Assembly: GCA_902573015.1 (NCBI GenBank) | Contig: CACGIE010000001.1 | Span: forward strand, 8,528-72,527 | From: an uncultured Candidatus Poseidoniales archaeon | GTDB taxonomy: Archaea; Thermoplasmatota; Poseidoniia; Poseidoniales; Thalassarchaeaceae | Length of the DNA stretch: 64,000 nt | Direction: 5' to 3' | Part shown: positions 1,112-15,738 of the stretch, piece by piece | Layout: every line of letters begins with the position of its first letter | Numbering within the stretch: the first letter of the stretch is position 1 | Made by a program: the position numbers and the translations under genes | The notes under the pieces: generated by a model | Told to the model about the DNA's origin: nothing | Database searches by the model: none | The model's input: only the letters and a program-made list of their open reading frames with translations

Positions 1112-1939
1112 ATGGACACTAGTGAACTGATGAGGGTGGCTCCGGATGAGCTTGCATCTGCCCTTCTAAACAGGAGAATGTTGCTCAAGGATAGCCTACC
1201 CGGAGTAATTAGGAATCTTGAGGCTGAAGAAGATACCCTATCCCCAAGGCTTGATAGGATGAAGAAATCCTTCGATGAAGCCAATGACAAGGTTGCCAAA
1301 TTCAAGGCCGAGAGGGATCACTTTCAGACCAGCGCTGGCATTCTAATTCCGGATGTGAAACGGATCAGGAAAAAACTGAATGAGTCTGGGGGAATGATCA
1401 GTCTTGATCCTAAATGGAAGAAGATGATGTTGCTGGAACAAATTGAAGAAATTGAGAACAAGATCCAGACATCAGCTTTAGACCATAAGTCCGAAAGGAA
1501 ACTACTAGAGAAAAGAAGATCGTTAATTTCCGAAAATGACAAATGGGTTAGAGACAGGAAGGACTCGAACCCGGAAATGGCGGAGTATCTGGAAAAGAAT
1601 AGAGAGATGTCTAAATTATTCAAGAAGGCGGATAAGGCACATTCTCAGATGATAGGTGCCGTTTCCAAAGCACAACCACTCTATGAGAAGTTAACTAGTG
1701 CCTCAGCAGAGATTAGAGAAATCAAGAGTCAATTGGACCGTGCTAAGGAGTTGCTTGCCCAGAGCGATAAAGCAATAGAATATTGGGAGAAGAGGATAGA
1801 AAATGGATTTGGAGATTTGGGACCAGGTTTCAGAGACCTCCTAAAGGGGCAAAAAAACGTTGATGCGGGGGGCAGTTCTTCTTTCGCCAAACGTTCTAGT
1901 AAATCGAAAGAAACGAAATCTAGAGGTGAAGAGGAATGA
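1112..1939 (+). CDS. archaeal coiled-coil protein, paralogue 1 of 3 (COG1340-like, function unknown)
   Basis: 275-aa K/E/R-rich heptad-like sequence. Shares ...KAERDHF... and ...LEQIEEIENKIQTSALDHKSERKLL... type motifs with the next two ORFs. Basic S/K-rich tail. Stop overlaps the next start (ATGA). Confidence 0.7.
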   Translation: MDTSELMRVAPDELASALLNRRMLLKDSLPGVIRNLEAEEDTLSPRLDRMKKSFDEANDKVAKFKAERDHFQTSAGILIPDVKRIRKKLNESGGMISLDPKWKKMMLLEQIEEIENKIQTSALDHKSERKLLEKRRSLISENDKWVRDRKDSNPEMAEYLEKNREMSKLFKKADKAHSQMIGAVSKAQPLYEKLTSASAEIREIKSQLDRAKELLAQSDKAIEYWEKRIENGFGDLGPGFRDLLKGQKNVDAGGSSSFAKRSSKSKETKSRGEEE

Positions 1940-2895
1940 ATGAGTCTTCAAAGTTTTACCAGAGTGATTTCCATGACCTGTCTGCAGAAGAAATGGAGGC
2001 AATGATTGCTGAAAAGAAGAGTACTTTGAGATCATTGGATTCAGAGAAGAGGGATCTACAGACGGAAAGGAAAGAGCAAGTACAGATTGTAAAGGCGCTC
2101 AGATCTGCAGTAGTTGGAATAGAGCAATCTGGGACTGGGAGAAAGAAGCTGCTGGGAGAGTTTCATTCCATGAGAAAACAGGCCAAGATTCACAGAGAAA
2201 AAAGAGATGAAATCAACGTAAGAGTCCCTCCTCCTTCGAAAATTCTAGAGGAGTGGCTTGGCGAGACCTACCTCACATTGACGAAAATCGACAATGACCT
2301 GACCGCAGTACCAATGTTGAATCCAGAATTATCGGCATTTAGCAGATTCTTCGAGATCCAGTCTTCAATCAAAAAGAAGAGGGAAGCAGAAAAATCTCAT
2401 TCGAAATATATTTCTAAGTTAAGTGAGATGCGAAAGATCTCCACCAAACTGGATCAAAATAAGGAAGAGTTCGGCAAGGCAAAATCTGAATTAAAGGAAA
2501 ATGTCGAAATCGAAGTAGACAAAATCAGTAGGAAAGACATACGCAAGATTAGTAGAAGTATTTCCTCTATTGATGAGAGAATTGAGGCTATCAAGATCGA
2601 AACAAATAGCGAAAGAAGTGTGTTGAAGAATCTCCAGAAGTACGCGAGGCTGTCTGCAGTCAGAGGCTCCTCCAGCATAGATGATATTCGCGGAATCGCC
2701 GCAAAGGGAGGTTATCTTAGCTCTGAAGAGCTAGGCCTGATACTAGAGACTGGTGGTTTTTCGTCAATTAATGATTCAAAAGATCCACTTCAAGAAGCAC
2801 CAAAACAGAGTCGATTACGTAAAAAGAAGACCAGGAAACTTGGCGTTTCTAGAAGAGGGGGGAGGAAAGGAAAGTCTGCCAGTCGTAGGGACTAG
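1936..2895 (+). CDS. archaeal coiled-coil protein, paralogue 2 of 3 (COG1340-like)
   Basis: 319 aa. HREKRDEINVRV matches KDRRDELNVKVR of paralogue 3. KGGYLSSEELGLILE matches SGDTLSDEDMMLLQ of paralogue 3. Strongly basic C-terminal tail (RLRKKKTRKLGVSRRGGRKGKSASRRD). Confidence 0.7.
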   Translation: MNESSKFYQSDFHDLSAEEMEAMIAEKKSTLRSLDSEKRDLQTERKEQVQIVKALRSAVVGIEQSGTGRKKLLGEFHSMRKQAKIHREKRDEINVRVPPPSKILEEWLGETYLTLTKIDNDLTAVPMLNPELSAFSRFFEIQSSIKKKREAEKSHSKYISKLSEMRKISTKLDQNKEEFGKAKSELKENVEIEVDKISRKDIRKISRSISSIDERIEAIKIETNSERSVLKNLQKYARLSAVRGSSSIDDIRGIAAKGGYLSSEELGLILETGGFSSINDSKDPLQEAPKQSRLRKKKTRKLGVSRRGGRKGKSASRRD

Positions 2896-2920
2896 AAGCT
2901 AAATAATCGGTATGGCTTAA

Positions 2921-3817
2921 ATGGAACTCCAAATTCGAAGCACTAGAGGGTTTACTTTGGGGCTCGAACAGTCGAATATCTCATCTGTTTTCGAAAAGAG
3001 TTCGGAATTGGTCAGCAAGAAGTTGGCCGAATACAAAGATCGTCGCGATGAGTTGAACGTTAAAGTAAGGACTCAGCTGGATAAGAGGAACGAAATAAAT
3101 CTGCAGGTAAAGCAGTTAATCACCGAAGTTCAGAAGCAGAAGAGCCTGAGGAACGAGGCTAATAGTAAGGTTGCTGAATTGAGGAAAATAAGACTAGAGA
3201 GAACAAACGAATTGAAGGATATTAGGGCAAAACTAAGGAGTTCGGTTGAGAAGAACGGTAGCCAGTCTGGAAAGAAGAGGAGTGGCCCTAGTTCTCGGAG
3301 TATTAGAGAACAAATGAACAAGCTTGAGTGGCGCCACCAAACTGGACAAATTAGTCCGAGTAAGGAGAAGGATTTCTTTGCAAAGATGAAGAGGTTGCAG
3401 GCAGATTTCAAAAGGCTCAAGAAAGAAGAAGAGGATAGTAGTTCAAGCGTTTTGAGAGAGGTTAGACAGGCAGAAAAAAGGCAGCAGAAGGCTCATGATG
3501 CAGTCACTGATGCATCAGAGAAATCCGAAGAAGCCCATTCACTAATGATGGAGTTATCAAATGAAGTTGACAGATTGAGGGGCATGGCAAATTCTGAGCA
3601 CTTGGGCCTAACTTCAACCAAATCGAATGCTGATGAGTTGCATAACAAGTATATCATTTCACTAAGGTGCATTCATTCAATGCAGGACATTCTGAAGCTA
3701 TCTGGTTCCAAGAAGGAGTACGAAGAAGAGAGAGTGGAGGTCTCCGACTTAATGTCCAGACTAATGAGTGGTGACACTCTTTCGGATGAGGACATGATGC
3801 TACTTCAGAGAAACTAA
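2921..3817 (+). CDS. archaeal coiled-coil protein, paralogue 3 of 3 (COG1340-like)
   Basis: 298 aa, continuous coiled-coil-type composition. Has the RDELN motif, a central LEWRHQTGQISPSKEKDFF motif and a C-terminal G.TLSDEDMMLLQ motif, which I recall as typical of the uncharacterised archaeal coiled-coil family. Confidence 0.7.
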   Translation: MELQIRSTRGFTLGLEQSNISSVFEKSSELVSKKLAEYKDRRDELNVKVRTQLDKRNEINLQVKQLITEVQKQKSLRNEANSKVAELRKIRLERTNELKDIRAKLRSSVEKNGSQSGKKRSGPSSRSIREQMNKLEWRHQTGQISPSKEKDFFAKMKRLQADFKRLKKEEEDSSSSVLREVRQAEKRQQKAHDAVTDASEKSEEAHSLMMELSNEVDRLRGMANSEHLGLTSTKSNADELHNKYIISLRCIHSMQDILKLSGSKKEYEEERVEVSDLMSRLMSGDTLSDEDMMLLQRN

Positions 3818-4750
3818 GTCATACAGACGGCCGTTTCTTCCATGCAGGATTTTGTCTGCTTCGAGATTTATCAACCAGCCTGGGATGAATATTCTGTAGT
3901 GCTCGATCATTGCCATGTGTATATCCAAAACCCACTTTTCGAGTAGCATGCTCCTAACAGTGCCAGAGATGCTCACCTCACCAGAGTCTCCCCTTCTCCT
4001 CTCGTTCACTATTTTGGAAATCTCCATTTTTAGCTTATCTACGCTAAGCCAATTCCCATTGGGGGGTTCTATTGACCTAATCTTCGGAGATCTTTGCATA
4101 CTTTCTGATTCACCAATGATGCTGAGCCTCTGAGACCATGGATCCTCCAGTATTGTCCATTCACCCTTTTCACTACTGCCACTAGGTCCATGCAAATCTC
4201 CTGAAACTCTCCAGATTAGAGCCTCTAGCAATATTGGTGATGATGAAAATCCCTCAATTCCTCGACTCGCAGTCCAAGAGTCTATGTCAATCTTCGAACT
4301 GAGAACTTGCATCTCCCCCTCATTGGAATAAGTGGAAACGTCATTAGATTCTACGTCATCTGAGTCTTCCAGAACAGCCGAGGCGACAAGCTCTCCAGAA
4401 AGAACCGCGCTTCCGATCCACTGCGAAATCTGTTTTGGGGAAACTATCTGAAATTTTGTTCCATCTAGGGAATCGCAATCAGAATGAGTTGCTCTCTCAC
4501 TAAGAATAAGGTGGAAACCATCTGGGGCATCCATCTCGAATCTGTCTAGCTCGCTTCTAGTAATAGGTAGAATTTCCTTAGGAGCATGCCAGATGAAGGT
4601 TCTTCGTGAATGAATGCCGAAGTCTGGTACTGCTGTGGCTAGGCCAATTGGTTTGAATGGAGACTCTGGAATCCCTATATCAAATGAGTCGAAGTCTACT
4701 GACCTGAGGCTAAGTAACTCTCGCAATACACCCTCCATAGCCCTAGGCAT
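3800..4750 (-). CDS. hypothetical protein (316 aa), last gene after rpl30e on the RNAP-operon strand
   Basis: Long ORF with no competing frame. No motif I can assign. It occupies the position where nusA-rps12-rps7 follow rpl30e in many archaea. Confidence 0.55.
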   Translation of the reverse strand: MPRAMEGVLRELLSLRSVDFDSFDIGIPESPFKPIGLATAVPDFGIHSRRTFIWHAPKEILPITRSELDRFEMDAPDGFHLILSERATHSDCDSLDGTKFQIVSPKQISQWIGSAVLSGELVASAVLEDSDDVESNDVSTYSNEGEMQVLSSKIDIDSWTASRGIEGFSSSPILLEALIWRVSGDLHGPSGSSEKGEWTILEDPWSQRLSIIGESESMQRSPKIRSIEPPNGNWLSVDKLKMEISKIVNERRRGDSGEVSISGTVRSMLLEKWVLDIHMAMIEHYRIFIPGWLINLEADKILHGRNGRLYDLVSLK

Positions 4751-4807: not shown

Positions 4808-5110
4808 TCAGACGTTTGGGGCTAGCTGCAGTAGATCGCTCTGTCCTGGATCGATTACGCACAGAGAACTGACAGGGAATGGCTTTCCACATGCAGCACC
4901 AAGCTGCCGGTTTACCATAGTAACCTGGTGAATTGGTACCGACGGATGCGAATTCCTCAAATCATCGATAAAAGACTCGGGACAATTAGAGGCAACCAGC
5001 ACTAACTTTGCACCTCCTTTGGTGCAGTGTGATACTGTCTGTCTTTGTCCAAAGACTAGTTCTCCTGAGTTAATTCCTTGCTTGAGTTGTCTTGCGATGT
5101 CCATCTTCAA
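4808..5110 (-). CDS. rpl30e: 50S ribosomal protein L30e
   Basis: 100 aa. GELVFGQRQT...GGAKLVLVASNCPE...GKPFPVSSLCVIDPGQSDLL matches the L30e/L7Ae-fold consensus. Conserved position directly after rpoA2. Confidence 0.85.
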   Translation of the reverse strand: MKMDIARQLKQGINSGELVFGQRQTVSHCTKGGAKLVLVASNCPESFIDDLRNSHPSVPIHQVTMVNRQLGAACGKPFPVSSLCVIDPGQSDLLQLAPNV

Positions 5111-5113
5111 ACC

Positions 5114-6694
5114 TCAGTTATTTTCATCGGGGATATAGAATAGTTCGACGCTGCCCGTTCCTAGCGCAACTGGTTGGCCTACGATGATGTTCTCTGTTAC
5201 TCCGGATAGGTTGTCTCTTTCTCCAATTACTCCAGCCTTCAGCAGATGTGTAACCGTGACCTCGAAAGCCGAACGTGCAAGGATGGAGTGCTTTGTCCCG
5301 CTTACACCATGACGACCAATTGCTCTAACCTCTCCACCGGTAGTCATCACATCTGAGACCATGATCAGGTGCCTCACGTCTACATCGAGACCTGCACCCT
5401 CGAGTGTATCCCACATTTCGTTAATTATCGCTTGTCTGGCGGCCTCTATACCAAGATAGTCATGTATCTCATTGATATTGTTCGTGTAAGTCCTTGATCG
5501 GTCCACTCCGTCGAACTCACTTACCTTTGATAGGTTTGAGCCGATTGTTGAGATGTAATATTCGCCTGTTTCGGACATTGGGCCCTGAACTGTAGCTCTG
5601 CTAATTCCTGGGAGACCCTTCAATCGTAGTTTCTTGATCTTGTCCTCGAGTTGCAGAAGAGCGGTGTAAGTAGGAGGGTCTGATGTAAGGGATGCAAGAT
5701 CTTCTTCCTTTGACACGCCTGGAATGATCCTTAGAGACTTTGGGCGGTCATCGTCATCGGCCTGCACATACAGTCTTAGAGCGCGTGAGAGCTTGTCTCT
5801 GACTTCTGCGCCAGTCATTTTCTTCAGCTTCATGTTTTTATTGTTTAGCTGTAGTAGTATGTTCCTCTGAGCGACATCGACGTCAATAGTTGCGATATCT
5901 ATAGCGGTGGTGGTCTCAATGGATGCTGCTAAGTCTCTAACCAACTTCTCATTAGTCCTCAGTGGCTTTCCCTTAGAATTCTTCTCGTCCATGTAAATTA
6001 TCATGGTTGGAGTTTGTGGTACCTTCCTAGCATCGACAATCTCGATTATCCTAGGTAGACCCTGGGTAACGTTTACTGTAGCCACACCTGCATAGTGGAA
6101 TGTACGCATCGTCATCTGAGTACCGGGTTCACCAATAGACTGGGCAGTGGTAATTCCTACTGCCTCGTGTGGAACGGCCTTTGCGTCATTGTAGAAGGTG
6201 CTTGCCGAATTGATTATTTTCTTGGCCTTGGCGGCTGTTACCTTCTTCTCCCCTCTGCTATGCAGCCCTTGGACAAGTTGGTCTATCATCCTTGGAGTCA
6301 AGTTTGAGTCGCTTTCCTCGGCTGCTTTGTTCAGCTGAATGAACATCTCATCTTCGATATCGACATCACGGAAGAGTTGCTTCATCTTGATTTCATAGTC
6401 GTAGTCCTGCAAAGGTAGTGAACGCTTCGTCCTCCTAGCTCTGGACACTGTTCTTCTGCGAACAATGGTCTTCTCGGTACTAGCTGCAGAAGCTCTGCTG
6501 GACTTTACTGAGCTGGCCATGACATCGTAGATTCTCTGAGAAGTTCCAGAGTCGATTCCACATATCTGGGCAATCTGACCTGGAGAGAGGCCCTTTACAT
6601 CGTCCCATTTGCGGTCATCAGCTAACTTGTGGGCATATTCCTCTTCGATTCCCAGATCCATCAGCTTCTTCTTAGTTGCACTCTTGACTACCAT
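5114..6694 (-). CDS. rpoA2: DNA-directed RNA polymerase subunit A'' with an N-terminal extension of about 130 aa
   Basis: [20 protein letters not shown] plus the C-terminal conserved blocks ([32 protein letters not shown]). 526 aa versus about 390 aa typical. Start overlaps the rpoA1 stop. Confidence 0.95.
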
Positions 6695-9600
6695 CAGTTA
6701 CCACCCCCAAGTGCATCGTTAAGCACCTGATCGACATCGAATGGACTTCCCTTTCTGCTTCTGGCAGGATCGGTCCCATCCTCTCCGTACTCGAATTGGA
6801 TAATGCGGTTTGCAGTATTTCTAACTGAGGCCTTTGTATCATTGGAAACCTTCAGATCGTCCATAGCATTGATCAGCCTTCTCTGCATGTAACCTGACTT
6901 ACTCGTTCTGACAGCCGTATCGACCAGTGATTCCCTACCGGAAACTGAAAGCATGAAGAATTCGGTTGGTTCGAGGCCTCTCTTGAAAGACGAAGAAACG
7001 AAACCCTTCTCCTTTGATCCCTTGACCTTCCTAGGGAAGTGGGAAAGGACTCTGTCTTGATATCCCCTCTCAAGACGCTTACCTCTAACTTTTGGCTGGC
7101 CAATGGACCCTGCCATCATTGCTAGATTGTCCATTGAACCTCTTGCTCCGGAGGTCGCCATAAGAACTGCTGAATTGTCATCTCCAAGTTGTGCCTTAGC
7201 GACGTTTCCAGTTTCCGCCTTTGCGGCGTCTAGGATTGTCAATATGTTCTCCTCGAGAGTCTCGTGTGGAGTTCTGCCTGGCCTTGCCTCGTACTTCCTT
7301 CCGTCCTTTCCGAACTTTTCTAGTTCGGAGTCAACACTAGCACTGGCCTCAGAGTTAATCCTCACTATCTCTTCCTTAGCCTCGGGAGGTAGGTCTTCGT
7401 CATCTATTCCAGTGGTGAATCCCATTGCTGTACAGATGGCGATTGTCATCTTTGTCATCTTATTGATGAAGTCTGCCCCCCTGTCTGTACCATGTGTCTG
7501 GACGACCGCATCTAGGAGCCGCCCATCCTCCGCTCCAATGCCTCTCTTGTCGATAGAACCAGAGACGTCTCCTTGTGATACCTTGACTTCTTCTCCAGCA
7601 CGATTCTTGAAGTTAAGAGTGAAGCCCCCCTTCACAAGAAGGCTGAAGACTTCGTTGCCCAACAGACCGGTCTGTCCGTTTCTCTCTACTGATGGAGGTA
7701 TTTCTCCCTCCCACCCAATAGAACTGAGGACATCCATTGCAACAGGCATTGGAAGGAAGGCCTCCCCGTTCGTCAAAAGGTAAGCACCCGTGATGTGATC
7801 GTGTATCCCGCCAATGACGCTGCCCCCATATCTAGGAGATATGATGTGCTCCTGGACCCTCATGAGGATTCTAGCCTCTGCCCTAGCTTCCTCACTCTGA
7901 ATTACGTGTAGGTTCATTTCGTCCCCATCAAAATCTGCATTGTAGGGCGTGCAGTCAGCAAGGTTGAATCTGAATGTCTTGCCTTCCATGACTCTTATTT
8001 CGTGAACTAGCATTGACATCCTGTGGAGTGATGGTTGTCTATTGAAAATGGTTACATCTCCGTCAATAAGGTGCCTTTCGACAACAACTCCTGGCCTTGG
8101 GTTTCCATCTCTATCGTACGTGCTTAATCGATCTTCTACTTCTGTAGGGTAGAGGTTTCCATGTTCATCCTCAATCTCTGGGCTTCCGCAGTGTGGGCAT
8201 CTCACCTCGAGGTGATCGGGAAGATAATCATCCGGATTCTCTACTTCCCACTTCCAGCGGTGATGTATTGCCGCATCTGGATCGTCTTCAGCAAGGGGGT
8301 TTCCATCTTCTCCCTCCCCTCTTAGGTTTGACAGAGTCCTATCCAAATCTACGCTCCACTCTGGAAGGAGCTCGTCTGTCATGGGGTCCCTCCGCATTTG
8401 CTCCTTCAAAACAAGACCTGGAAGGAAGTTTGGAGCCGGGAGGACCTCGTTCAAATCAGGCCTGTAACCCATGTACGGATCCTCTTCACTACCACAATGG
8501 CAATCTGGATTTAGACATCTAAATCCTGCCCAGATATACTTCGTTCTATCGGTAATCCTAACTCTGAACCTATCTCCTCTAATGATATAGTTGACACCAG
8601 GATGGACATCTGGACCCCTCAGGATCATCTGTCTGAGTTGTTCTCTGTTTCTACTAGTAGCCCTGATAGGTACAGTCAGCTCCTTGGCCGTCTTCACTGG
8701 GACTCCGACTTCGTTGATTCCGAGGTTCGGATCTGGGCTGATAACTGTTCTAGCACAGAAGTTAACTCTCTTTCCGGACAGATTACTCCTGAAGCGACCC
8801 TCCTTCCCCTTTAGCCTCTGAGATAAGGTCTTTAGTGGCCTTCCGGATCTGTGTCGAGCTGGTGGGATTCCACTGGTCTGATTATCGAAGTATGTGGTAC
8901 AATGATACTGCAGCAGTTCCCAGAGATCTTCAACTATCAGTTGTGGGGCTCCTGAATCACGATTTTCCCTGAGTCTCTGGTTAATCCTTAGAACGTCGAC
9001 TAACTTGTGTGTGAGGTCATCCTCAGATCTATCTCCACTTTCAAGAGTGATAGATGGCCTAACAGTAATTGGAGGAACTGGTAGTACCTTCATTATTGTC
9101 CATTCTGGTCTACTGACGTCTTTCTCCATTCCGAGGAATATTAGGTGCTCATCGGGTATCTTTTCGAGCCATTCTCGAATATCTCGAGCGTTCAGTTTGT
9201 GCTCTCCCTTGTCTGCCTTCTTTTCTTTGAAGGTTGTGGGCTTATCCAGAATTATCTTGCCTTGTTCCGAGCCGCAATGCATGCATATTGCACGCTTCGG
9301 ACCAGCACAAATATTCTCAATATCCTTGATGATTTTCTTGAATTCCCTACCACCAACTCCGTGCTTTAGGATTATGTCGTTCACTCTGTCTCTATAGTAG
9401 TCCTGCTCAGACTTCTCTGGATCGGTGGGATGCGTTTGCGGGGCATCGTGCAGCAAGGCCTTACTGCACGAATTGCAGGTTGTCTTCAAGCAAGTCTTGA
9501 TTAGCCCGGTGAATCCTATATGCATCACAGGTAGCTCTAGGGCTATGTGGCCGAAGTGACTTGGGCACTCTTCGTGCTTGTTCCCGCAGGTTTCACACCT

Positions 9601-9789
9601 GATTCCGGGATCGATTACTCCCATCTTCGGGTCCATGAGTCCTTGTTTGAATGCGTGACCATCGTCCTTGTAGGTGTCTGCTGTCTTTACTTCTACAGAT
9701 GACATCTTCCTTATCTCGTTTGGATCCATCAGTGTGAATCTAATCGAGTCTATTCTCTTGGGTATCTTTGCTGCATCTCGAGCACTCAT
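6694..9789 (-). CDS. rpoA1: DNA-directed RNA polymerase subunit A' with an internal Cys-rich insertion of about 145 aa
   Basis: N-terminal zinc motifs, [30 protein letters not shown] and the catalytic [12 protein letters not shown]. 1031 aa versus about 880 typical. Confidence 0.97.
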
Positions 9790-12700
9790 CTTCTATCCTC
9801 CAGTTCTAATCTCATTGCTACTCCAAGACTCTTCATTTCATCCAGGAGAAGTTTGAATGCATAGGAGGTCTGGACGCTATGGACGTCTGACCTATCGCCG
9901 CAGACAGGGCAGATTGTAGTCCTTCTCTTCCAATCGTAATATGCGATATGACCGCATCTGGGAGTGTTGCAGACCATAAGATTCCAGCCATCTGATTCAT
10001 CAAGAAGACGATCCTTGATTACCATGGATGCGCCATGAGAAATTAGACAGTCACGCTCCATCTCTCCGAATCTGAGGCCACCTTGCCTTGCTCTACCTTC
10101 TGTTGGTTGCCTAGTGAGGATTTGCACCCTTCCTCTGCTTCTAGCATGGAGTTTACTGCTAACCAGATGGTGGAGTCGCTGGTAATAGATGACGCCAACG
10201 AATGTATCGACAGGGAAACTCTCTCCTGTCTCTCCGTTAATCATCGACTCCCTACCGGTGTGCTTCAGACCGTTTCTAAGTAGGCCCGATCTGAGCGACT
10301 CTTCCTTTTCCCCGGTGAATGCGGTTCCATCTATTCTTCTGCCCTCCATGGATCCAACCTTTCCTCCGATCATCTCCAATACGTGGGCTACAGTCATTCT
10401 AGAAGGGATAGCGTGGGGATTGATGAGTAAATCAGGTATGACGCCGTCTTCTGTGAATGGCATATCTTCCTCATTTACCAGTCTACCAATTATTCCCTTT
10501 TGTCCGTGTCTGCTGGCGAACTTGTCTCCAAGTTCTGGAACCTTATTCGTCCTAAGAGTAATTCGGACTAGCCTACCTGAGTCGAGGGACTCTGTAACGA
10601 AGATGTTATCCACCCAGCCCTTCTCACCGTGACGAACGAGCATAGAGGACTCCCTCCGTTCCTGGGCCTGCAGGAATGCCCCGTGTGACTCTTCTAGGAA
10701 CCTAGGCGGGCTGGTTTTACCTACAAGGATAGATCTACCGCCTTCCTGACTGGTCAGCTCTACCTCTGGAACAGGTAGTCCGTCTCTTTCCAGATGAGAA
10801 TAAGAATCCCACGACTTGAGTCCTTTGATTTCATCAAGACCCGTGCCTGGAACCTCGATCCTCTCCTCTTGTCCGCCTGGGAATCTCTTGTTCTCTGCAT
10901 TGTAAGTCCTGACGAACGCAGATCTACCGAGGGCCCTCTCAACCGAGGCTTTGTTCATAATAACGGCGTCTTGCATGTTGTAACCGTGATGGCTGACGAT
11001 TGCAACAACGAAGTTCTGACCCCCAGGCCTTTCATCGAATTTAGTGGACTTCATAGCCCGTGTCCCCACAATTGATCTCTGGGGGTAGTGCATCACATGT
11101 GCACGGGTATCGGGTCTAAGTCTGAAATTGGCACTAGCCACTCCTAGACTCTGTTTGACCATCGCTGTTCCACCCGTAACCCTTGGTGTTGAGTTGTGTT
11201 CAGGATACGGGACTAGAGAGGCGCAAACGCCCATGATGAGTTGAGGGTCGATCTCTACGTGAGTATACACCAGAACTGTGTGATCCTTTTTCTCTTTCCT
11301 CTTGAGTGCGTCCATGTTTTCTTGGTAGTAGTTTAGTGGAACCTTGAATTTCTCTATCTTTGACTCACCATTGGGCATAGTTACTTCTGCAGACACCTCA
11401 GCATGTGATATTCCATGCTCTCCAAGGTTGGTCCACTGTACCTTTGATGGATTTATGGGACGTTTGTTCTTTGGGGATACTGAAGGCAAATCGAAAGGTC
11501 TTGGAGCTATCAAGAGGTCTTCTTCTTCTTCGGCATCTACCCATTCTACAACTCCCCCAGAGACAAGATCAGAAAATGTGATCTCGCCGCTTTCTAATGC
11601 TTCCAAGTGCATCTTTGTAATTTGCAGACTACCATGATCGATTATTAGAAGTGGGCGTAGCATCCTACCCCTATCGGTGTTGATGAAAACATCACGATTC
11701 TCATTGTCATGCCTGATACTTACCTCTGGTCTAATCCTACCTGATCTGCGTCTCCTCTTGAATTGGCTTACGAGCTTATGTGGCCTCTTGTGAAGGCCGA
11801 AGATATCTCCGTTAACATGTATCCTAGAGCCGTCTGCCCAGCCCTCGGGATTATCGTCTACTCCTGCTTCCTTCAATAATGCCTTGACATCCTCTTCGGG
11901 AACTTCCTCTGAGACGTCTATCATTTGTGCTGCATTCTTTACTAGACCACAATTTTGCCCCTCAGGAGTCTCGTTTGGACATAGTCTGCCCCATTGTGTA
12001 GGGTGCAAATCTCTTGCCTCGAAATGGGGCTGACTTCGAACGAGTGGGCTCGTGACCCTCCTCATATGAGACAGTGCAGACAAGTATGTTGTCCTATCAA
12101 GAAGTTGGCTTACTCCTGACCTCCCCCCGACCCAGTTTCCTGTAGCAAGAGCATGCATAATCTTGGTTGTAAGGACGTCAGGACGAAGGCAAGAAGAAAT
12201 TCTTAGTTCCCTCTTCCTATTGTGGTGCCTCTCCAATTGGTACTTCAAGTCTCGAGCCAGTTGCTGAAGGCTTACCCTGAAGAGATCCTCCACGAGATCC
12301 CCAGCTAGACGGACACGCTTGTTTGCGTAGTGATCCTTGTCATTAGGATCCTTATCCATGATGGCCATCTCTAGAACTTGCCTAGCAATACGACCCAGGA
12401 AAATTGCTTTCTTCTCCCTATTATCAAATTTCGATCCTAAGTGAGGCAGTAGTTCGTTATCGAGTAAGTTTTGGATTCTCGATTCTCTGTACTCCTTCTG
12501 CTGACCTGCTGCGAACTTCTTCTCCAACCAAGCTAGGGCCTCCTCAGATGTATCGACACCATACTCCTCATTATCCCTAAGATCGTTTAGGTTAGCCACG
12601 GTATACTTCATCGCCTCGGGAGGTCCTGCAATAGAGGCGAAGATATCCATATCCTTGGCTACTCCAAGTGCCCTCATCAGAAGTACCAGAGGAATGGGGG

Positions 12701-13478
12701 TAGTTCCCGCACTAGGGATCTTAACCATTAGCATTCCATCTCTTCTCTTTTCAACGTTCAGAGGCTTCCTTACGCCGTCTTTTTGGGAGAATATTTTCGC
12801 GACTTGGGTTTCATGGGCATACTTCTTGTTCTTCTCTACTGTTACCCTGTTTGGAGCGAGGTCCTCCATTGAAATCAGAACTCTCTCGGTCCCGTTGATA
12901 ATGAAGTAACCACCGGGATCAAGAGGGTCTTCGCCATACTTTCGTAGAAGTTGTGTATATCTCTCCGAATCCTCAGTAGAGGTTTCCGGGGCGAGGCGCC
13001 GATTCTCATCTGCATGGTTTGGGTTCAGGTTGCACCTAGCTGATCTAACCATTATCGGTAAATTCCCTATGTGGACGCTCGTTTCCTCCTGGAATCCCAT
13101 CTCGGATCCGGGAGATGGGGGCAAATCGTCACGAAAAATCTTGAAGTCTAGATAGACGGGTGAGAAGTAAGTAAGCTTCCTGAGTCTGCATTCCATTGGA
13201 GTTGCATGGTGTTCTGCCCCGTTGGCCTCCTTAATTGTGGGCCTGCCTAACCTAAGATTCTTTAGTCGGACAATGATTTCTTTATCTAAAAGATCGAGTT
13301 TGACTAATCCTCCCTCGTCATCTTCTACTGGTTCGTCACTACCGATTCTAATGTTCCGTACGATGTTCTCCATCCTACTCTCCTTACCGTCTCCGATAGG
13401 TATGCAGTCGTTGTACGAAGCAAGTTGGTGGTTCACTAGGCTTCTATGCTTGAAATAACTCTCAACAATCTCTCTCAA
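9786..13478 (-). CDS. rpoB: DNA-directed RNA polymerase subunit B (unsplit)
   Basis: 1230 aa. GGYFIINGTERV, RQPTEGRARQGGLRFGEMERDC and a C-terminal Zn motif CNTPRCG...CPVCG. A single ORF, not the B'/B'' split. Confidence 0.97.
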   Translation of the reverse strand: MREIVESYFKHRSLVNHQLASYNDCIPIGDGKESRMENIVRNIRIGSDEPVEDDEGGLVKLDLLDKEIIVRLKNLRLGRPTIKEANGAEHHATPMECRLRKLTYFSPVYLDFKIFRDDLPPSPGSEMGFQEETSVHIGNLPIMVRSARCNLNPNHADENRRLAPETSTEDSERYTQLLRKYGEDPLDPGGYFIINGTERVLISMEDLAPNRVTVEKNKKYAHETQVAKIFSQKDGVRKPLNVEKRRDGMLMVKIPSAGTTPIPLVLLMRALGVAKDMDIFASIAGPPEAMKYTVANLNDLRDNEEYGVDTSEEALAWLEKKFAAGQQKEYRESRIQNLLDNELLPHLGSKFDNREKKAIFLGRIARQVLEMAIMDKDPNDKDHYANKRVRLAGDLVEDLFRVSLQQLARDLKYQLERHHNRKRELRISSCLRPDVLTTKIMHALATGNWVGGRSGVSQLLDRTTYLSALSHMRRVTSPLVRSQPHFEARDLHPTQWGRLCPNETPEGQNCGLVKNAAQMIDVSEEVPEEDVKALLKEAGVDDNPEGWADGSRIHVNGDIFGLHKRPHKLVSQFKRRRRSGRIRPEVSIRHDNENRDVFINTDRGRMLRPLLIIDHGSLQITKMHLEALESGEITFSDLVSGGVVEWVDAEEEEDLLIAPRPFDLPSVSPKNKRPINPSKVQWTNLGEHGISHAEVSAEVTMPNGESKIEKFKVPLNYYQENMDALKRKEKKDHTVLVYTHVEIDPQLIMGVCASLVPYPEHNSTPRVTGGTAMVKQSLGVASANFRLRPDTRAHVMHYPQRSIVGTRAMKSTKFDERPGGQNFVVAIVSHHGYNMQDAVIMNKASVERALGRSAFVRTYNAENKRFPGGQEERIEVPGTGLDEIKGLKSWDSYSHLERDGLPVPEVELTSQEGGRSILVGKTSPPRFLEESHGAFLQAQERRESSMLVRHGEKGWVDNIFVTESLDSGRLVRITLRTNKVPELGDKFASRHGQKGIIGRLVNEEDMPFTEDGVIPDLLINPHAIPSRMTVAHVLEMIGGKVGSMEGRRIDGTAFTGEKEESLRSGLLRNGLKHTGRESMINGETGESFPVDTFVGVIYYQRLHHLVSSKLHARSRGRVQILTRQPTEGRARQGGLRFGEMERDCLISHGASMVIKDRLLDESDGWNLMVCNTPRCGHIAYYDWKRRTTICPVCGDRSDVHSVQTSYAFKLLLDEMKSLGVAMRLELEDRR

Positions 13479-13490
13479 TTAAATTCCTCC

Positions 13491-14078
13491 TTACGCGCTC
13501 TCCACAATTAGCCTGAATGCCACTGATTGTCCTGCAGATCTACTGTATCGAACGACTTTGACAACTCTATTTGCTAGCCATCCGGCAGGAAGTTCATCGT
13601 TCTCAGATTCTTCGACCTCTTTGATAACCTGAATTGCAGGATCGGTAATCAGAATTTTCGGCAGGAGTTCCTTTGCGAGCCTGTTCTTTCCAAAGGCATC
13701 ATCCGTTATGAGCCCCCATGGCTCAAGAATCTGTGCTTCATCCTCGATTGGGACTAGTTCATGATGAGGCACGAGTACATGGTTAAGCACATTGAATCTG
13801 TAGTCTCCAGTAGGGATGTCCTCATCCAGAAGTGCCTTTCGGGAGATAGTGATTCTGTTACTCTTACTCCTCTTACGAGAGCCAACATGTTCACTAATAA
13901 CGCCCATGATATGCTCAAGTTCGGAGACCCCATCCTCAAGGCCGACCTTTTTCGCGACCTGCTCCCTGGACATTCTCTTTATTGCGTCCAGATTTGCGTC
14001 GTCCGCCAACTTGTGTGCGTGATCCTCCGGGATCCCCAGCTCTATCAATCTCTTTTTTGTTGAGCTCTTTACTGCCAT
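13491..14078 (-). CDS. rpoH: DNA-directed RNA polymerase subunit H with an N-terminal extension of about 105 aa
   Basis: The C-terminal ~85 aa (NVLNHVLVPHHELV...LPKILITDPAIQ...VVKVVRYSRSAGQSVAFRLIV) match the RpoH/Rpb5 C-domain. 195 aa versus about 80 typical. First gene of the rpoH-B-A'-A'' order. Confidence 0.85.
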   Translation of the reverse strand: MAVKSSTKKRLIELGIPEDHAHKLADDANLDAIKRMSREQVAKKVGLEDGVSELEHIMGVISEHVGSRKRSKSNRITISRKALLDEDIPTGDYRFNVLNHVLVPHHELVPIEDEAQILEPWGLITDDAFGKNRLAKELLPKILITDPAIQVIKEVEESENDELPAGWLANRVVKVVRYSRSAGQSVAFRLIVESA

Positions 14079-14096
14079 GACTCTTCCCCCACCCAG

Positions 14097-14126
14097 AAAA
14101 AACGAGGGCCTGAGAAGCCGTCAGGC
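14097..14126 (-). terminator. hairpin (GCCUGA-CGGCUUC-UCAGGC) followed by U6, between the tRNA-Lys 3' end and the rpoH start
   Basis: Minus strand reads ...CAGGCCC G CCTGACGGCTTCTCAGGC CCTCG TTTTTT CTGGGTGGGGGAAGAGTC ATG. A 6-bp stem plus oligo-T is the usual archaeal termination or pausing signal. Confidence 0.35.
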
Positions 14127-14199
14127 GGGCCTGAGGGGATTCGAACCCCCGGCCACCGGGTTAAAAGCCCGGCGCTCTACCTGACTAAGCTACAGGCCC
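14126..14199 (-). tRNA. tRNA-Lys: tRNA-Lys (anticodon UUU), 74 nt, no encoded CCA
   Basis: Folded by hand from GGGCCTGTAGCTTAGTCAGGTAGAGCGCCGGGCTTTTAACCCGGTGGCCGGGGGTTCGAATCCCCTCAGGCCCG. 7-bp acceptor, D stem GCTT/GAGC, anticodon stem CCGGG/CCCGG with loop CTTTTAA, 5-nt variable region, and T arm GGGGG-TTCGAAT-CCCCT. Confidence 0.9.
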
Positions 14200-14394: not shown

Positions 14395-15738
14395 ATGACG
14401 ACGACCAAAGTCTCATTGGAAGGAGTTGGGGAGTGGGAGGTTTTCTCACCTCAGACAGTTTATCCTCCGAGGGAGGATTCGTTATTACTATGCAGAGTCA
14501 TTTCAGAATTTACCCCCTTTCCAGGTACAAAGGCCCTAGAAATTGGCTGCGGATCAGGAATAGTTACTATGGCCTTAGCCACTCTTGGTTGGGAGGTTTC
14601 AGCCTGCGACTTGAATCCATTTGCAGTTTCTGCGACAAGAGGAAATATGGAGAATAACGGAATTCCTGGAAGTCATAGAATTATCGAATCCGGTGTAGGA
14701 GAAAATTTTGCTATCCCAGATGGAACAAGATTAGTGATATGGAATCTACCCTATCTTGAAAGAGAAGATGAGGACGATGAAATTGAGAAAATAGAGGAAA
14801 TTGCATGGTCTGAAATTCCAGGGAAGGGTTGGGGTGGAGAACTTCTGAATTTCTTAGATTCCCAACATAATGTGAATGGACTATTGGTATTGATGGTAAT
14901 GAAGACAGAACCAGAGGGAAAAAGCAAGGCCGTTGACTGGGAACGAAGGGGATGGACATCCCGTACACTTGGTTCAGAGAGGTTTGGGGTAGAAAAGATT
15001 GAGGTTGTGGCCTTTTGGAAGACCGGAGCGGGCCACTCTCCAACTATTATCGATACCTGCTCTTCGACAATGGAAGAAGTAATGGAAATATCGGGTGGAG
15101 ATTGGGTGAGAGTCATGTCCAGGATTCAGACGAATGGCAGAGGGAGGAAGAACTCCCAATGGATCTCAGAGGAAGGCGGAGTTTTTGCCACATGGAAATT
15201 AGGGTCGAACCTTATTGATGAGTTCTCTCCAGGAATAATCCAAACTAGTGTTGGAGCTGTTGTTTCCGAAGTTCTGGAAGCAGAAATGAAGTGGCCGAAC
15301 GACATTCTTAACAAAAAGGGAGAGAAGATGGGAGGGGTACTTGTAGAGTCTTCGAATGGCGAAGGTAGTGGAATTCGAATCGGGATAGGGATAAATCGGT
15401 TTAGTTTATCCAGAGAGAAGAAAATTCTAGGTTGTGGATGGGAAGAGACCCTTGGCAATGTTGATGCAAAGGAGATTTTTAATAAAATAGACAGGGGGAT
15501 TTCTTCTATTTTCGAAAAGAAGGATTTCTTGCCCCTCCCAAGCAAGGATAGCCTGGTTATCCAATCTTGGATTTCTCTATCAAAATCTCTATCCAGAGGT
15601 GTTGCTGTAAGACTGGGCAACGAAGTAGTTAGGCCCTCGGGATTGAACAAGTTAGGAGAGATACGGGTTACTGGGGGGTCTATTGGATGTGTAGATATTG
15701 GGGATCTGGACAAAATTGAGTGGTTGGGCTACAGGTAA
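14395..15738 (+). CDS. fusion protein: N-terminal HemK/Mtq2-type protein (glutamine-N5) methyltransferase domain plus C-terminal biotin-protein ligase (BirA catalytic) domain
   Basis: N-terminal half has VYPPREDSLLL, SAM motif LEIGCGSGIV, and LVIWNLPYL (an NPPY-type motif IV). C-terminal half has QTNGRGRKNSQWIS (GRGRxGRxW-type biotin-ligase motif), KWPNDIL and GIGINR. Confidence 0.8.
   Translation: MTTTKVSLEGVGEWEVFSPQTVYPPREDSLLLCRVISEFTPFPGTKALEIGCGSGIVTMALATLGWEVSACDLNPFAVSATRGNMENNGIPGSHRIIESGVGENFAIPDGTRLVIWNLPYLEREDEDDEIEKIEEIAWSEIPGKGWGGELLNFLDSQHNVNGLLVLMVMKTEPEGKSKAVDWERRGWTSRTLGSERFGVEKIEVVAFWKTGAGHSPTIIDTCSSTMEEVMEISGGDWVRVMSRIQTNGRGRKNSQWISEEGGVFATWKLGSNLIDEFSPGIIQTSVGAVVSEVLEAEMKWPNDILNKKGEKMGGVLVESSNGEGSGIRIGIGINRFSLSREKKILGCGWEETLGNVDAKEIFNKIDRGISSIFEKKDFLPLPSKDSLVIQSWISLSKSLSRGVAVRLGNEVVRPSGLNKLGEIRVTGGSIGCVDIGDLDKIEWLGYR

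Follow-up and report, generated by a model that had tools for sequence, protein, structure and literature searches.

Why should two different subunits of one RNA polymerase begin with the same protein segment? The question is raised by a stretch of 64,000 nucleotides (hereafter the window; assembly GCA_902573015.1, contig CACGIE010000001.1, positions 8,528 to 72,527) from an uncultured archaeon of the order Poseidoniales, whose family, the Thalassarchaeaceae, corresponds to Marine Group IIb (MGIIb) within Marine Group II (MGII). A first-pass annotation of the window, made from its letters alone, had proposed that the polymerase subunit RpoH carries an N-terminal extension homologous to the N-terminus of subunit RpoA''. 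Archaeal RpoH is stated in the literature to have no N-terminal domain (PMC3906176, PMC2847245). Our analysis leads us to describe the Poseidoniales RNA polymerase as an archaeal enzyme whose accessory domain belongs to a new family within a known fold class.

The two genes belong to a minus-strand operon in the order tRNA-Lys(UUU), rpoH, rpoB, rpoA', rpoA'', rpl30e, in which rpoH is placed directly upstream of rpoB-rpoA'-rpoA''. The features on which the argument depends are the following, in window coordinates.

14124..14199, minus strand: tRNA-Lys(UUU), found by ARAGORN, 45 nt upstream of rpoH; it bounds the 5' end of the open reading frame (ORF)
14079..14095, minus strand: Shine-Dalgarno-like purine-rich stretch GGGTGGGGGAAGAGTC, read from the sequence; it abuts the rpoH ATG on the 5' side
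13491..14078, minus strand: rpoH, 195 aa, consisting of module, basic linker and Rpb5_C core (ORF; Pfam PF01191)
13764..14078, minus strand: the RpoH extension as first annotated, equal to the first 105 codons of rpoH
13884..14078, minus strand: RpoH module, residues 1-65, a predicted five-helix bundle resembling sterile alpha motif (SAM) or double helix-hairpin-helix, (HhH)2, domains (AlphaFold2, AF2; Foldseek; pN/pS 0.20)
13974..14078, minus strand: best-conserved core, residues 1-35, with the basic tail MAVKSSTKKRL, helix 1, the G-I hairpin, helix 2 (AHKLADD) and the first part of helix 3
13797..13883, minus strand: RpoH linker, residues 66-94, basic and predicted to be disordered (predicted local distance difference test, pLDDT; charge; pN/pS 0.25)
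13494..13796, minus strand: RpoH core, the Rpb5 C-terminal domain, residues 95-195 (Pfam; beta/alpha core in the AF2 model)
5114..6694, minus strand: rpoA'', 526 aa, consisting of module, basic linker (longer than in RpoH) and Rpb1 domain 5 core (ORF; PF04998)
6506..6694, minus strand: RpoA'' module, residues 1-63 (BLASTP; 108.9 bits with the profile hidden Markov model, HMM)
6416..6505, minus strand: RpoA'' basic linker, residues 64-93, net charge +10

RpoH is a member of PF01191 (48.5 bits against a cutoff of 23.5; residues 95-191, model positions 1-73) and RpoA'' a member of PF04998, or Rpb1 domain 5 (160.1 bits against 28.5, from residue 149); the gene of the latter adjoins rpoA', its start overlapping the rpoA' stop by 1 nt. 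Since the Pfam cores start only at residue 95 of RpoH and residue 149 of RpoA'', both proteins have long N-terminal extensions. The RpoH extension, originally put at ~105 aa, is present but shorter, at ~94 aa (module, residues 1-65; linker, residues 66-94). The basic linker that had been described behind the module occurs in both proteins, with a net charge of +7 in RpoH (residues 66-82) and +10 in RpoA''. The 97 residues matched in the RpoH core correspond to only 73 model positions and include an acidic insertion of ~24 aa, which reaches ~35-45 aa in some relatives with an RpoH of 205-216 aa.

The proposed homology of the two N-termini is borne out by BLASTP: RpoH 1-74 and RpoA'' 1-72 share 32 of 74 identical and 50 of 74 positive positions, with one 2-residue gap (E=3e-15), and a recount by eye gives the same 19 identities that had been counted over the first 27 residues. 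The identical residues of the two copies are encoded by different synonymous codons, so that the likeness lies at the protein level and does not reflect a recent duplication of DNA. As judged from this comparison, the two N-termini are old paralogous protein segments. The RpoH modules of MGIIa and MGIIb have in common a 2-residue indel relative to RpoA'', which places the duplication before the MGIIa/MGIIb split. A six-frame search of the window (tblastn and profile HMM) gave no third copy of the module, the next best match having E=0.07.

An extension of this kind could be an artefact, if the upstream region were non-coding or a separate small gene and if RpoH and RpoA'' started near their cores. 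Many database calls of 47-129 aa do hold the module alone, and such calls dominated our first word-indexed search; one long-read assembly has the module and the A'' core on two ORFs of their own, which overlap. The short calls, however, are contig-end fragments or linker frameshifts with +1-frame tails. Some module-only fragments carry adapter-derived tails, while the tails of others equal the +1 frame of linker DNA, and short stand-alone module proteins were therefore rejected as real genes. Furthermore, the extension lies within one intact ORF in 76 of 80 species representatives, and purifying selection on it matches that on the core in strength: across the 76 RpoH orthologues the module has a ratio of nonsynonymous to synonymous differences (pN/pS) of 0.20, the linker one of 0.25 and the core one of 0.24, and synonymous sites are almost saturated. 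Beyond residue 58, rpoH has no in-frame Met before the core begins, and the linker is kept as protein. The start position of rpoH is fixed by the tRNA-Lys gene 45 nt upstream together with the Shine-Dalgarno-like motif. Of 17 species sampled, 15 have a tRNA-Lys gene 44-57 nt upstream of rpoH, and both rpoH and rpoA'' have a purine-rich GGTGG stretch ahead of their start codons, GGGGGTGG upstream of rpoA'' resembling GGGTGGGGGAAGAGTC. We therefore regard the artefact reading as extremely improbable and essentially excluded, and the RpoH extension as translated and conserved, linker included, in keeping with the first-pass annotation.

In several assemblies rpoA'' is split by a frameshift within the basic linker (L088:4001-5573; P0004, P0005, P0013, P0028, P0039, P0095 and P0254). 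A pilon-polished long-read contig of 1.5 Mb is among them; the split leaves a module-only ORF and an A'' core ORF of 432 aa. Indel error in A/G-rich DNA is the most likely cause of these frameshifts; they may also represent a genuine split or a programmed frameshift. The first 11 codons of rpoH show a pN/pS of 0.045 with a pS of 0.75. An RNA or translation signal was considered for these codons and rejected, because the pS of 0.75 is saturated and the codons vary among carriers of the module.

How widely is the module distributed? When one genome of each GTDB species was scanned, at least 507 module matches were confirmed. The best 80 loci, which were examined, are all of RpoH type and all from Poseidoniales or Marine Group II; 76 of them are single intact ORFs of 195-205 aa starting exactly at the module, and the other four run into a contig end. 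With full-length RpoH as query, 1016 homologues were obtained, the best 120 of which are all 182-222 aa in length (nearly all 193-205, mostly 195) and 72-97% identical over their full length. A divergent RpoH of 216 aa from MGIIa (Poseidoniaceae) also contains both the module and the Rpb5_C core. Its presence in RpoH of both MGIIa and MGIIb marks the module as a feature ancestral to the order. For RpoA'', a cluster of 523-aa orthologues bearing the module comprises 216 members, named subunit A'' by several sources. A HMMER search of 1.84 billion representative proteins returned only 208 module clusters, which fits a narrow lineage distribution.

What kind of domain is it? AF2 models of full-length RpoH, based on a 30-sequence alignment, begin with five helices (residues ~6-13, 18-25, 30-34, 38-45 and 52-65; pLDDT ~80), followed by a stretch of pLDDT <50 (residues 67-101) and the Rpb5-type core. 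Modelled alone from 46 diverse sequences, the module again shows these five helices (mean pLDDT 76.6; predicted template modelling score, pTM, 0.58), with residues 1-3 at pLDDT <50; these structure predictions are of moderate confidence. The predicted hairpin loops of 3 and 6 residues give the model an (HhH)2 topology. In the first hairpin, G15 is at least 90% conserved and is followed by I or V, and the second hairpin is canonical in the RpoA'' type and variable elsewhere; that of the window's RpoA'' is the only canonical HhH-pattern match among the long ORFs of the window. The first 11 residues have a net charge of +4 and the folded body one of -5/-6.

In a Foldseek search of the PDB, the SAM domains of SARM1 ranked highest (probability up to 0.94, template modelling (TM) score 0.60-0.65, E=0.5-1), in the company of the C-terminal (HhH)2 domain of UvrC (probability 0.91, TM 0.63) and, further, of FANCM-FAAP24, the N-terminal domains of RAD51 paralogues and RadA, and NusA. 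The HhH unit of two hairpins that had been read from the sequence is thus recovered in part: the predicted five-helix bundle contains two HhH-like units, and (HhH)2 domains are among its nearest structural neighbours, but SAM domains are equally near, all E-values exceed 0.5, and no sequence or structure match is significant. Pfam HHH_5 gave 12.1 bits against a cutoff of 27 (E=0.3), with RpoA'' only. Over the 46 module sequences, Pfam matched no consistent family; the scattered sub-threshold matches included Sigma70_r4_2 in six sequences and HHH-type families in five (HHH_5 itself in two, at E>=0.07), with none to Pfam SAM. A comparison by hhalign with an alignment of RadA/Rad51 N-terminal domains, the sequences of which had been verified against the PDB, gave 25% probability and was out of register. 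The profile search of PDB sequences returned only noise (E>=0.7), Foldseek against BFVD nothing significant, and Pfam (2025) has no model for the module.

Like RadA/Rad51 (HHH_5), UvrC, the NusA AR and FANCM/FAAP24, the module has a predicted five-helix topology with two hairpins, and its residue pattern (L..xGI....a.KL ... I.GI....A.kI) is similar to that of (HhH)2 domains, with Foldseek TM scores of 0.52-0.68; unlike them, it falls below every significance threshold and has an acidic body and an invariant ADD motif. SAM domains are protein-interaction modules, essentially eukaryotic and bacterial. They share with the modelled module a long C-terminal helix and provide the best Foldseek probabilities (0.94), but the E-values are 0.5-1, the identity is 18-21% and Pfam SAM is not matched. 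On the strength of the models, the module is best placed in the SAM-like/(HhH)2 fold class and is not assigned to a family within it; we consider it a new domain family, for which we found no match in Pfam, the PDB or the literature. A parallel exists in haloarchaeal eL32 (234-241 aa), a core information-processing protein with an (HhH)2-type N-terminal fusion in one archaeal lineage. Its N-terminal segment matches the (HhH)2 N-terminal domain of RadA in a PDB search (E ~1e-6 to 1e-8); it differs from RpoH and RpoA'' in belonging to the ribosome and in having a recognisable HHH_5-like sequence.

What, then, might the two modules do? Subunit H lies in the lower jaw, bound tightly to A'', and in initiation complexes it cross-links to positions +10 to +20 of the downstream DNA (PMC2847245). 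In the window, the A'/A'' split falls at approximately positions 47-66 of the Rpb1 domain 5 profile. From the architecture of Pol II, we take this point to be in the cleft/foot region, part of the shelf module. As H and A'' adjoin each other in the lower jaw, alongside the channel for downstream DNA, tethering of DNA appears the most likely role, and by analogy with the published enzymes we tentatively propose that the modules on H and A'' form a pair of tethered, sequence-independent nucleic-acid contacts at the lower jaw, a reading that we hold to be quite possible though short of probable. The Poseidoniales polymerase bears two lineage-specific modules of ~65 residues, one at the N-terminus of each of H and A'', and a flexible, strongly basic linker, 30-80 residues long, tethers each of them to the conserved part of its subunit. 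Both tethers would emerge beside the DNA entry channel, H and A'' being neighbours in the lower jaw (shelf), and the basic tail, first hairpin and basic linker could together grip downstream DNA during open-complex formation and early elongation. The charge pattern (+4 in the tail, +7 and +10 in the linkers) counts in favour of this proposal. For the position of the modules relative to DNA we rely on structures and cross-links published for other archaeal RNA polymerases; that the module binds DNA is likewise inferred.

Three known polymerase elements invite comparison. The Rpb5 jaw is, like the RpoH module, an extra domain N-terminal to the Rpb5/RpoH assembly domain, and it lies on the lower jaw by downstream DNA (PMC2847245), where the module would lie too. 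Given that H and A'' sit in the lower jaw, the analogy is plausible, but the Rpb5 jaw is a rigid alpha/beta domain of ~140 aa with no homology to the module, which is a predicted 65-aa five-helix bundle on a disordered basic tether of ~30 aa and has a second copy on A''. Rpb5_N gave no Pfam match at E<=1, and no Rpb5 chain occurs among the 50 Foldseek PDB matches listed (of 72, E<=10). Rpo13 of the Sulfolobales is, like the module, a lineage-specific small helical element by Rpo5/H; it lies beside Rpo5 with its basic tail in the DNA channel, this flexible segment having been proposed to reach downstream DNA (PMC2675907). It differs in being a separate 104-aa subunit with a helix-turn-helix, as opposed to a fused N-terminal domain. 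To our knowledge, Rpo13 does not occur on mobile-element proteins, and, though represented in the PDB, it was not among the PDB profile matches (E<=10) or in the Foldseek list, the Rpo13 sequence itself not having been compared. The C-terminal domain of the bacterial alpha subunit (alpha-CTD), finally, is a small HhH-containing helical domain, present twice per enzyme on flexible tethers and contacting DNA and factors. It resembles the module in providing two tethered small helical copies per enzyme; the modules differ in being N-terminal, on different subunits, on the downstream and not the upstream side, and paralogous instead of identical. The alpha-CTD family PF03118 is absent among the 25 Pfam families listed, of the 33 matched by the 46 module sequences at E<=5. 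In functional terms, Rpo13 and the alpha-CTD are closer analogies than the Rpb5 jaw. Full-text literature searches found nothing linking the RNA polymerase of Marine Group II or Poseidoniales to such a domain.

The module is not confined to RNA polymerase. The claim that it is a feature of this enzyme stands as regards RpoH and RpoA'', but it missed ~30-40 unrelated and mostly ORFan protein families that, according to the exhaustive HMMER profile search, are headed by the first ~35 residues of the module. Carrier classes were counted on 150 listed clusters of the 208: 10 are RpoH, 12 are RpoA'', 54 are too short to classify, and 74 have a tail of at least 60 aa unrelated to RpoH or RpoA''. The latter fall into ~40 similarity groups, a few of which are frameshifted RpoA''. 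The carriers characterised by name are as follows.

P0298: an ORFan of 1292 aa
P0322: an AAA_15/AAA_21 ATPase of 851 aa (SMC/OLD-like)
P0293 and P0305: zinc-ribbon proteins
P0300 (L086:314-895): 193 aa, the module followed by one TFIIB cyclin repeat (PF00382, 25.9 bits against 23.6)
P0288: 186 aa, two tandem modules and nothing else recognisable
Several families of 150-340 aa: matched neither by Pfam nor by PHROGs
Other named carriers: P0321, P0324, P0342, P0358 and P0371; carrier loci L081-L087 and L089-L093

P0300, known from a 970-bp contig, resembles a truncated transcription factor B (TFB) with the module in place of the zinc ribbon and B-reader. Together with the SMC/OLD-like ATPase P0322, it shows that the fusion partners include DNA-associated types, a point in favour of DNA tethering. 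The carrier contigs are short and made of unidirectional ORFans; P0305 (L089:32-3751) sits between two Phage_integrase (tyrosine recombinase) genes, and one relative of P0298 comes from the 0.1-0.22 um size fraction of Tara. From this gene context, Marine Group II archaea probably harbour unknown mobile elements or viruses from which the carriers derive. A scan of IMG/VR gave 169 pattern matches, none of which was confirmed, a tblastn search of INPHARED gave no match to the module, and PHROGs provided nothing informative for the carriers or their neighbouring genes. Two other candidates were rejected: P0303 (2474 aa, 18 partial matches) proved to be a tandem-repeat protein, its 'KLADEFNFDDVK' similarity being due to chance, and the Charybdis elements of Poseidoniales (bioRxiv 10.1101/2025.08.03.668216) have conserved N-terminal triple-helix bundles that differ from the module.

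In the carriers, the module is always at the extreme N-terminus, except in P0322 and a few fusion calls. Among six carrier families, residues 1-35 are 58-74% identical, residues 36-65 only 18-49% and the remainder 31-41%, which points to the basic tail and first HhH (including x-D-L-G-[IV]) as the shared functional core. In a neighbour-joining tree of 62 columns, built without support values, the carrier modules nest within the RpoH-IIb, RpoH-IIa or RpoA'' types; the module of P0305 is 72% identical to RpoH-IIb, that of P0322 61% to RpoH-IIa and that of P0298 58-63% to RpoA''. These sequence relationships suggest repeated exchange between host polymerase genes and carrier elements. Since tRNA genes are frequent integration sites, we speculate that imprecise excision at the tRNA-Lys(UUU) gene beside rpoH may have been a route by which elements captured the 5' end of rpoH.

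Several observations weigh against DNA tethering. In Pfam, the PDB profile search, Foldseek and hhalign, no DNA-binding HhH family was matched significantly by sequence or structure; the folded body has a negative net charge (-5/-6); the invariant residues H22 and A25-D26-D27 differ from the classical DNA-contact residues of HhH motifs; and the second hairpin is poorly conserved outside RpoA''. Moreover, the proximity of the modules to DNA is extrapolated from the Sulfolobus, Pyrococcus and yeast enzymes, and the conservation of residues 1-35, together with the host-type copies on the carriers, fits a specific partner better than generic DNA binding. With the acidic body, these last features are better accommodated by docking or mimicry, or by a recognition signal.

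In the docking alternative, the module would be a SAM-like interaction domain, or would engage in (HhH)2-(HhH)2 pairing as in NusA-AR2/alpha-CTD and ERCC1/XPF: the H and A'' copies would pair mutually or with a common host factor, and proteins of mobile elements or viruses, by carrying host-type copies, would dock on, or compete with, the host polymerase. The place of SAM oligomerisation domains at the top of the Foldseek list (probability 0.94) is consistent with this, as are the acidic folded body and the concentration of conservation in residues 1-35 of six otherwise unrelated families (58-74%, against 18-49% elsewhere). It would also account for carriers with modules of host clades (P0305 with RpoH-IIb, P0322 with RpoH-IIa, others with RpoA''), lying amid ORFans or between tyrosine integrases, one being a truncated TFB-like protein. 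Recent capture of host 5' gene ends, however, could yield an equal pattern without function; the tree that groups the copies was drawn by neighbour-joining from 62 residues, without support values; and the element contigs were not recognised as viral in IMG/VR, INPHARED or PHROGs. We consider docking doubtful, though a serious candidate. Its fuller form, which we think unlikely, is that the module, of ~35-65 residues, would serve Poseidoniales alone as a tag for docking on RNA polymerase, with the H and A'' copies forming or binding a common site at the lower jaw, and that MGII elements or viruses repeatedly captured host-type copies, possibly by integration at the tRNA-Lys gene beside rpoH, to deliver their own proteins (the TFB-like factor, the ATPase and the large ORFans) or to displace the host modules.

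The tail itself raises a further alternative, namely that the N-terminal ~35 residues are mainly a signal recognised by machinery that modifies or targets proteins (methylation or acetylation of lysine, anchoring to chromatin or the nucleoid, or an assembly chaperone), with no functional share in the polymerase as it transcribes. These residues begin with 11 that are near-invariant (pN/pS 0.045) yet predicted to be unstructured (pLDDT <50 for residues 1-3), the module stands at the extreme N-terminus of almost every carrier, and the lysine-rich KS[AS]TKK[KR], which we take to resemble histone-tail-like substrates, is in line with such a signal. A modifying enzyme or receptor was not identified, and the remaining module and the linker of RpoH are under selection as well; a signal of this kind seems improbable to us. 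DNA tethering at the lower jaw remains the reading that we put forward, at the tentative level given above.

The window contains other features in and around the operon.

9786..13478, minus strand: rpoB, unsplit
6694..9789, minus strand: rpoA'
4808..5110, minus strand: rpl30e

RpoA' (1031 aa) matches Pfam Rpb1 domain 2 in two stretches and contains an insertion of ~140 aa (residues ~425-565, window ~8097..8517, minus strand) with Cys-x2-Cys motifs (CLNPDCHC..., RCPHCGSPE), which is a further lineage-specific polymerase addition. After rpl30e, a conserved ORF of 313-316 aa (window 3800..4750, minus strand; L088:5949-6890), without a Pfam match, occupies the position usually held by nusA in archaeal RNA polymerase operons. 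Window 1112..3817 (plus strand) encodes three tandem coiled-coil proteins rich in Lys, Glu and Ser (275, 319 and 298 aa), two of which match DUF7121; a DUF7121 gene likewise adjoins the RNA polymerase operon in L088. Window 14395..15738 (plus strand) encodes a 447-aa fusion of a small S-adenosylmethionine-dependent methyltransferase domain (PrmA/MTS-like) with a biotin/lipoate protein ligase domain.

Contrary to the published picture of archaeal RpoH (PMC3906176, PMC2847245), a whole and globally abundant order thus has an RpoH with an N-terminal domain. The same module, duplicated on the adjoining A'', would give the polymerase two tethered accessory domains at its DNA entry side. If this is true, it would represent a third independent answer at the site that the Rpb5 jaw takes in eukaryotes and Rpo13 in the Sulfolobales, with an architecture that recalls the alpha-CTDs. 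The occurrence of the module on proteins resembling those of mobile elements offers a concrete handle on the interplay between elements or viruses and host transcription in uncultured Marine Group II, and its function can be tested with recombinant proteins, for which cultivation is not needed. If the module proves to be a docking tag, it would constitute a molecular-mimicry system for the takeover of transcription in an uncultured, globally abundant archaeal lineage.

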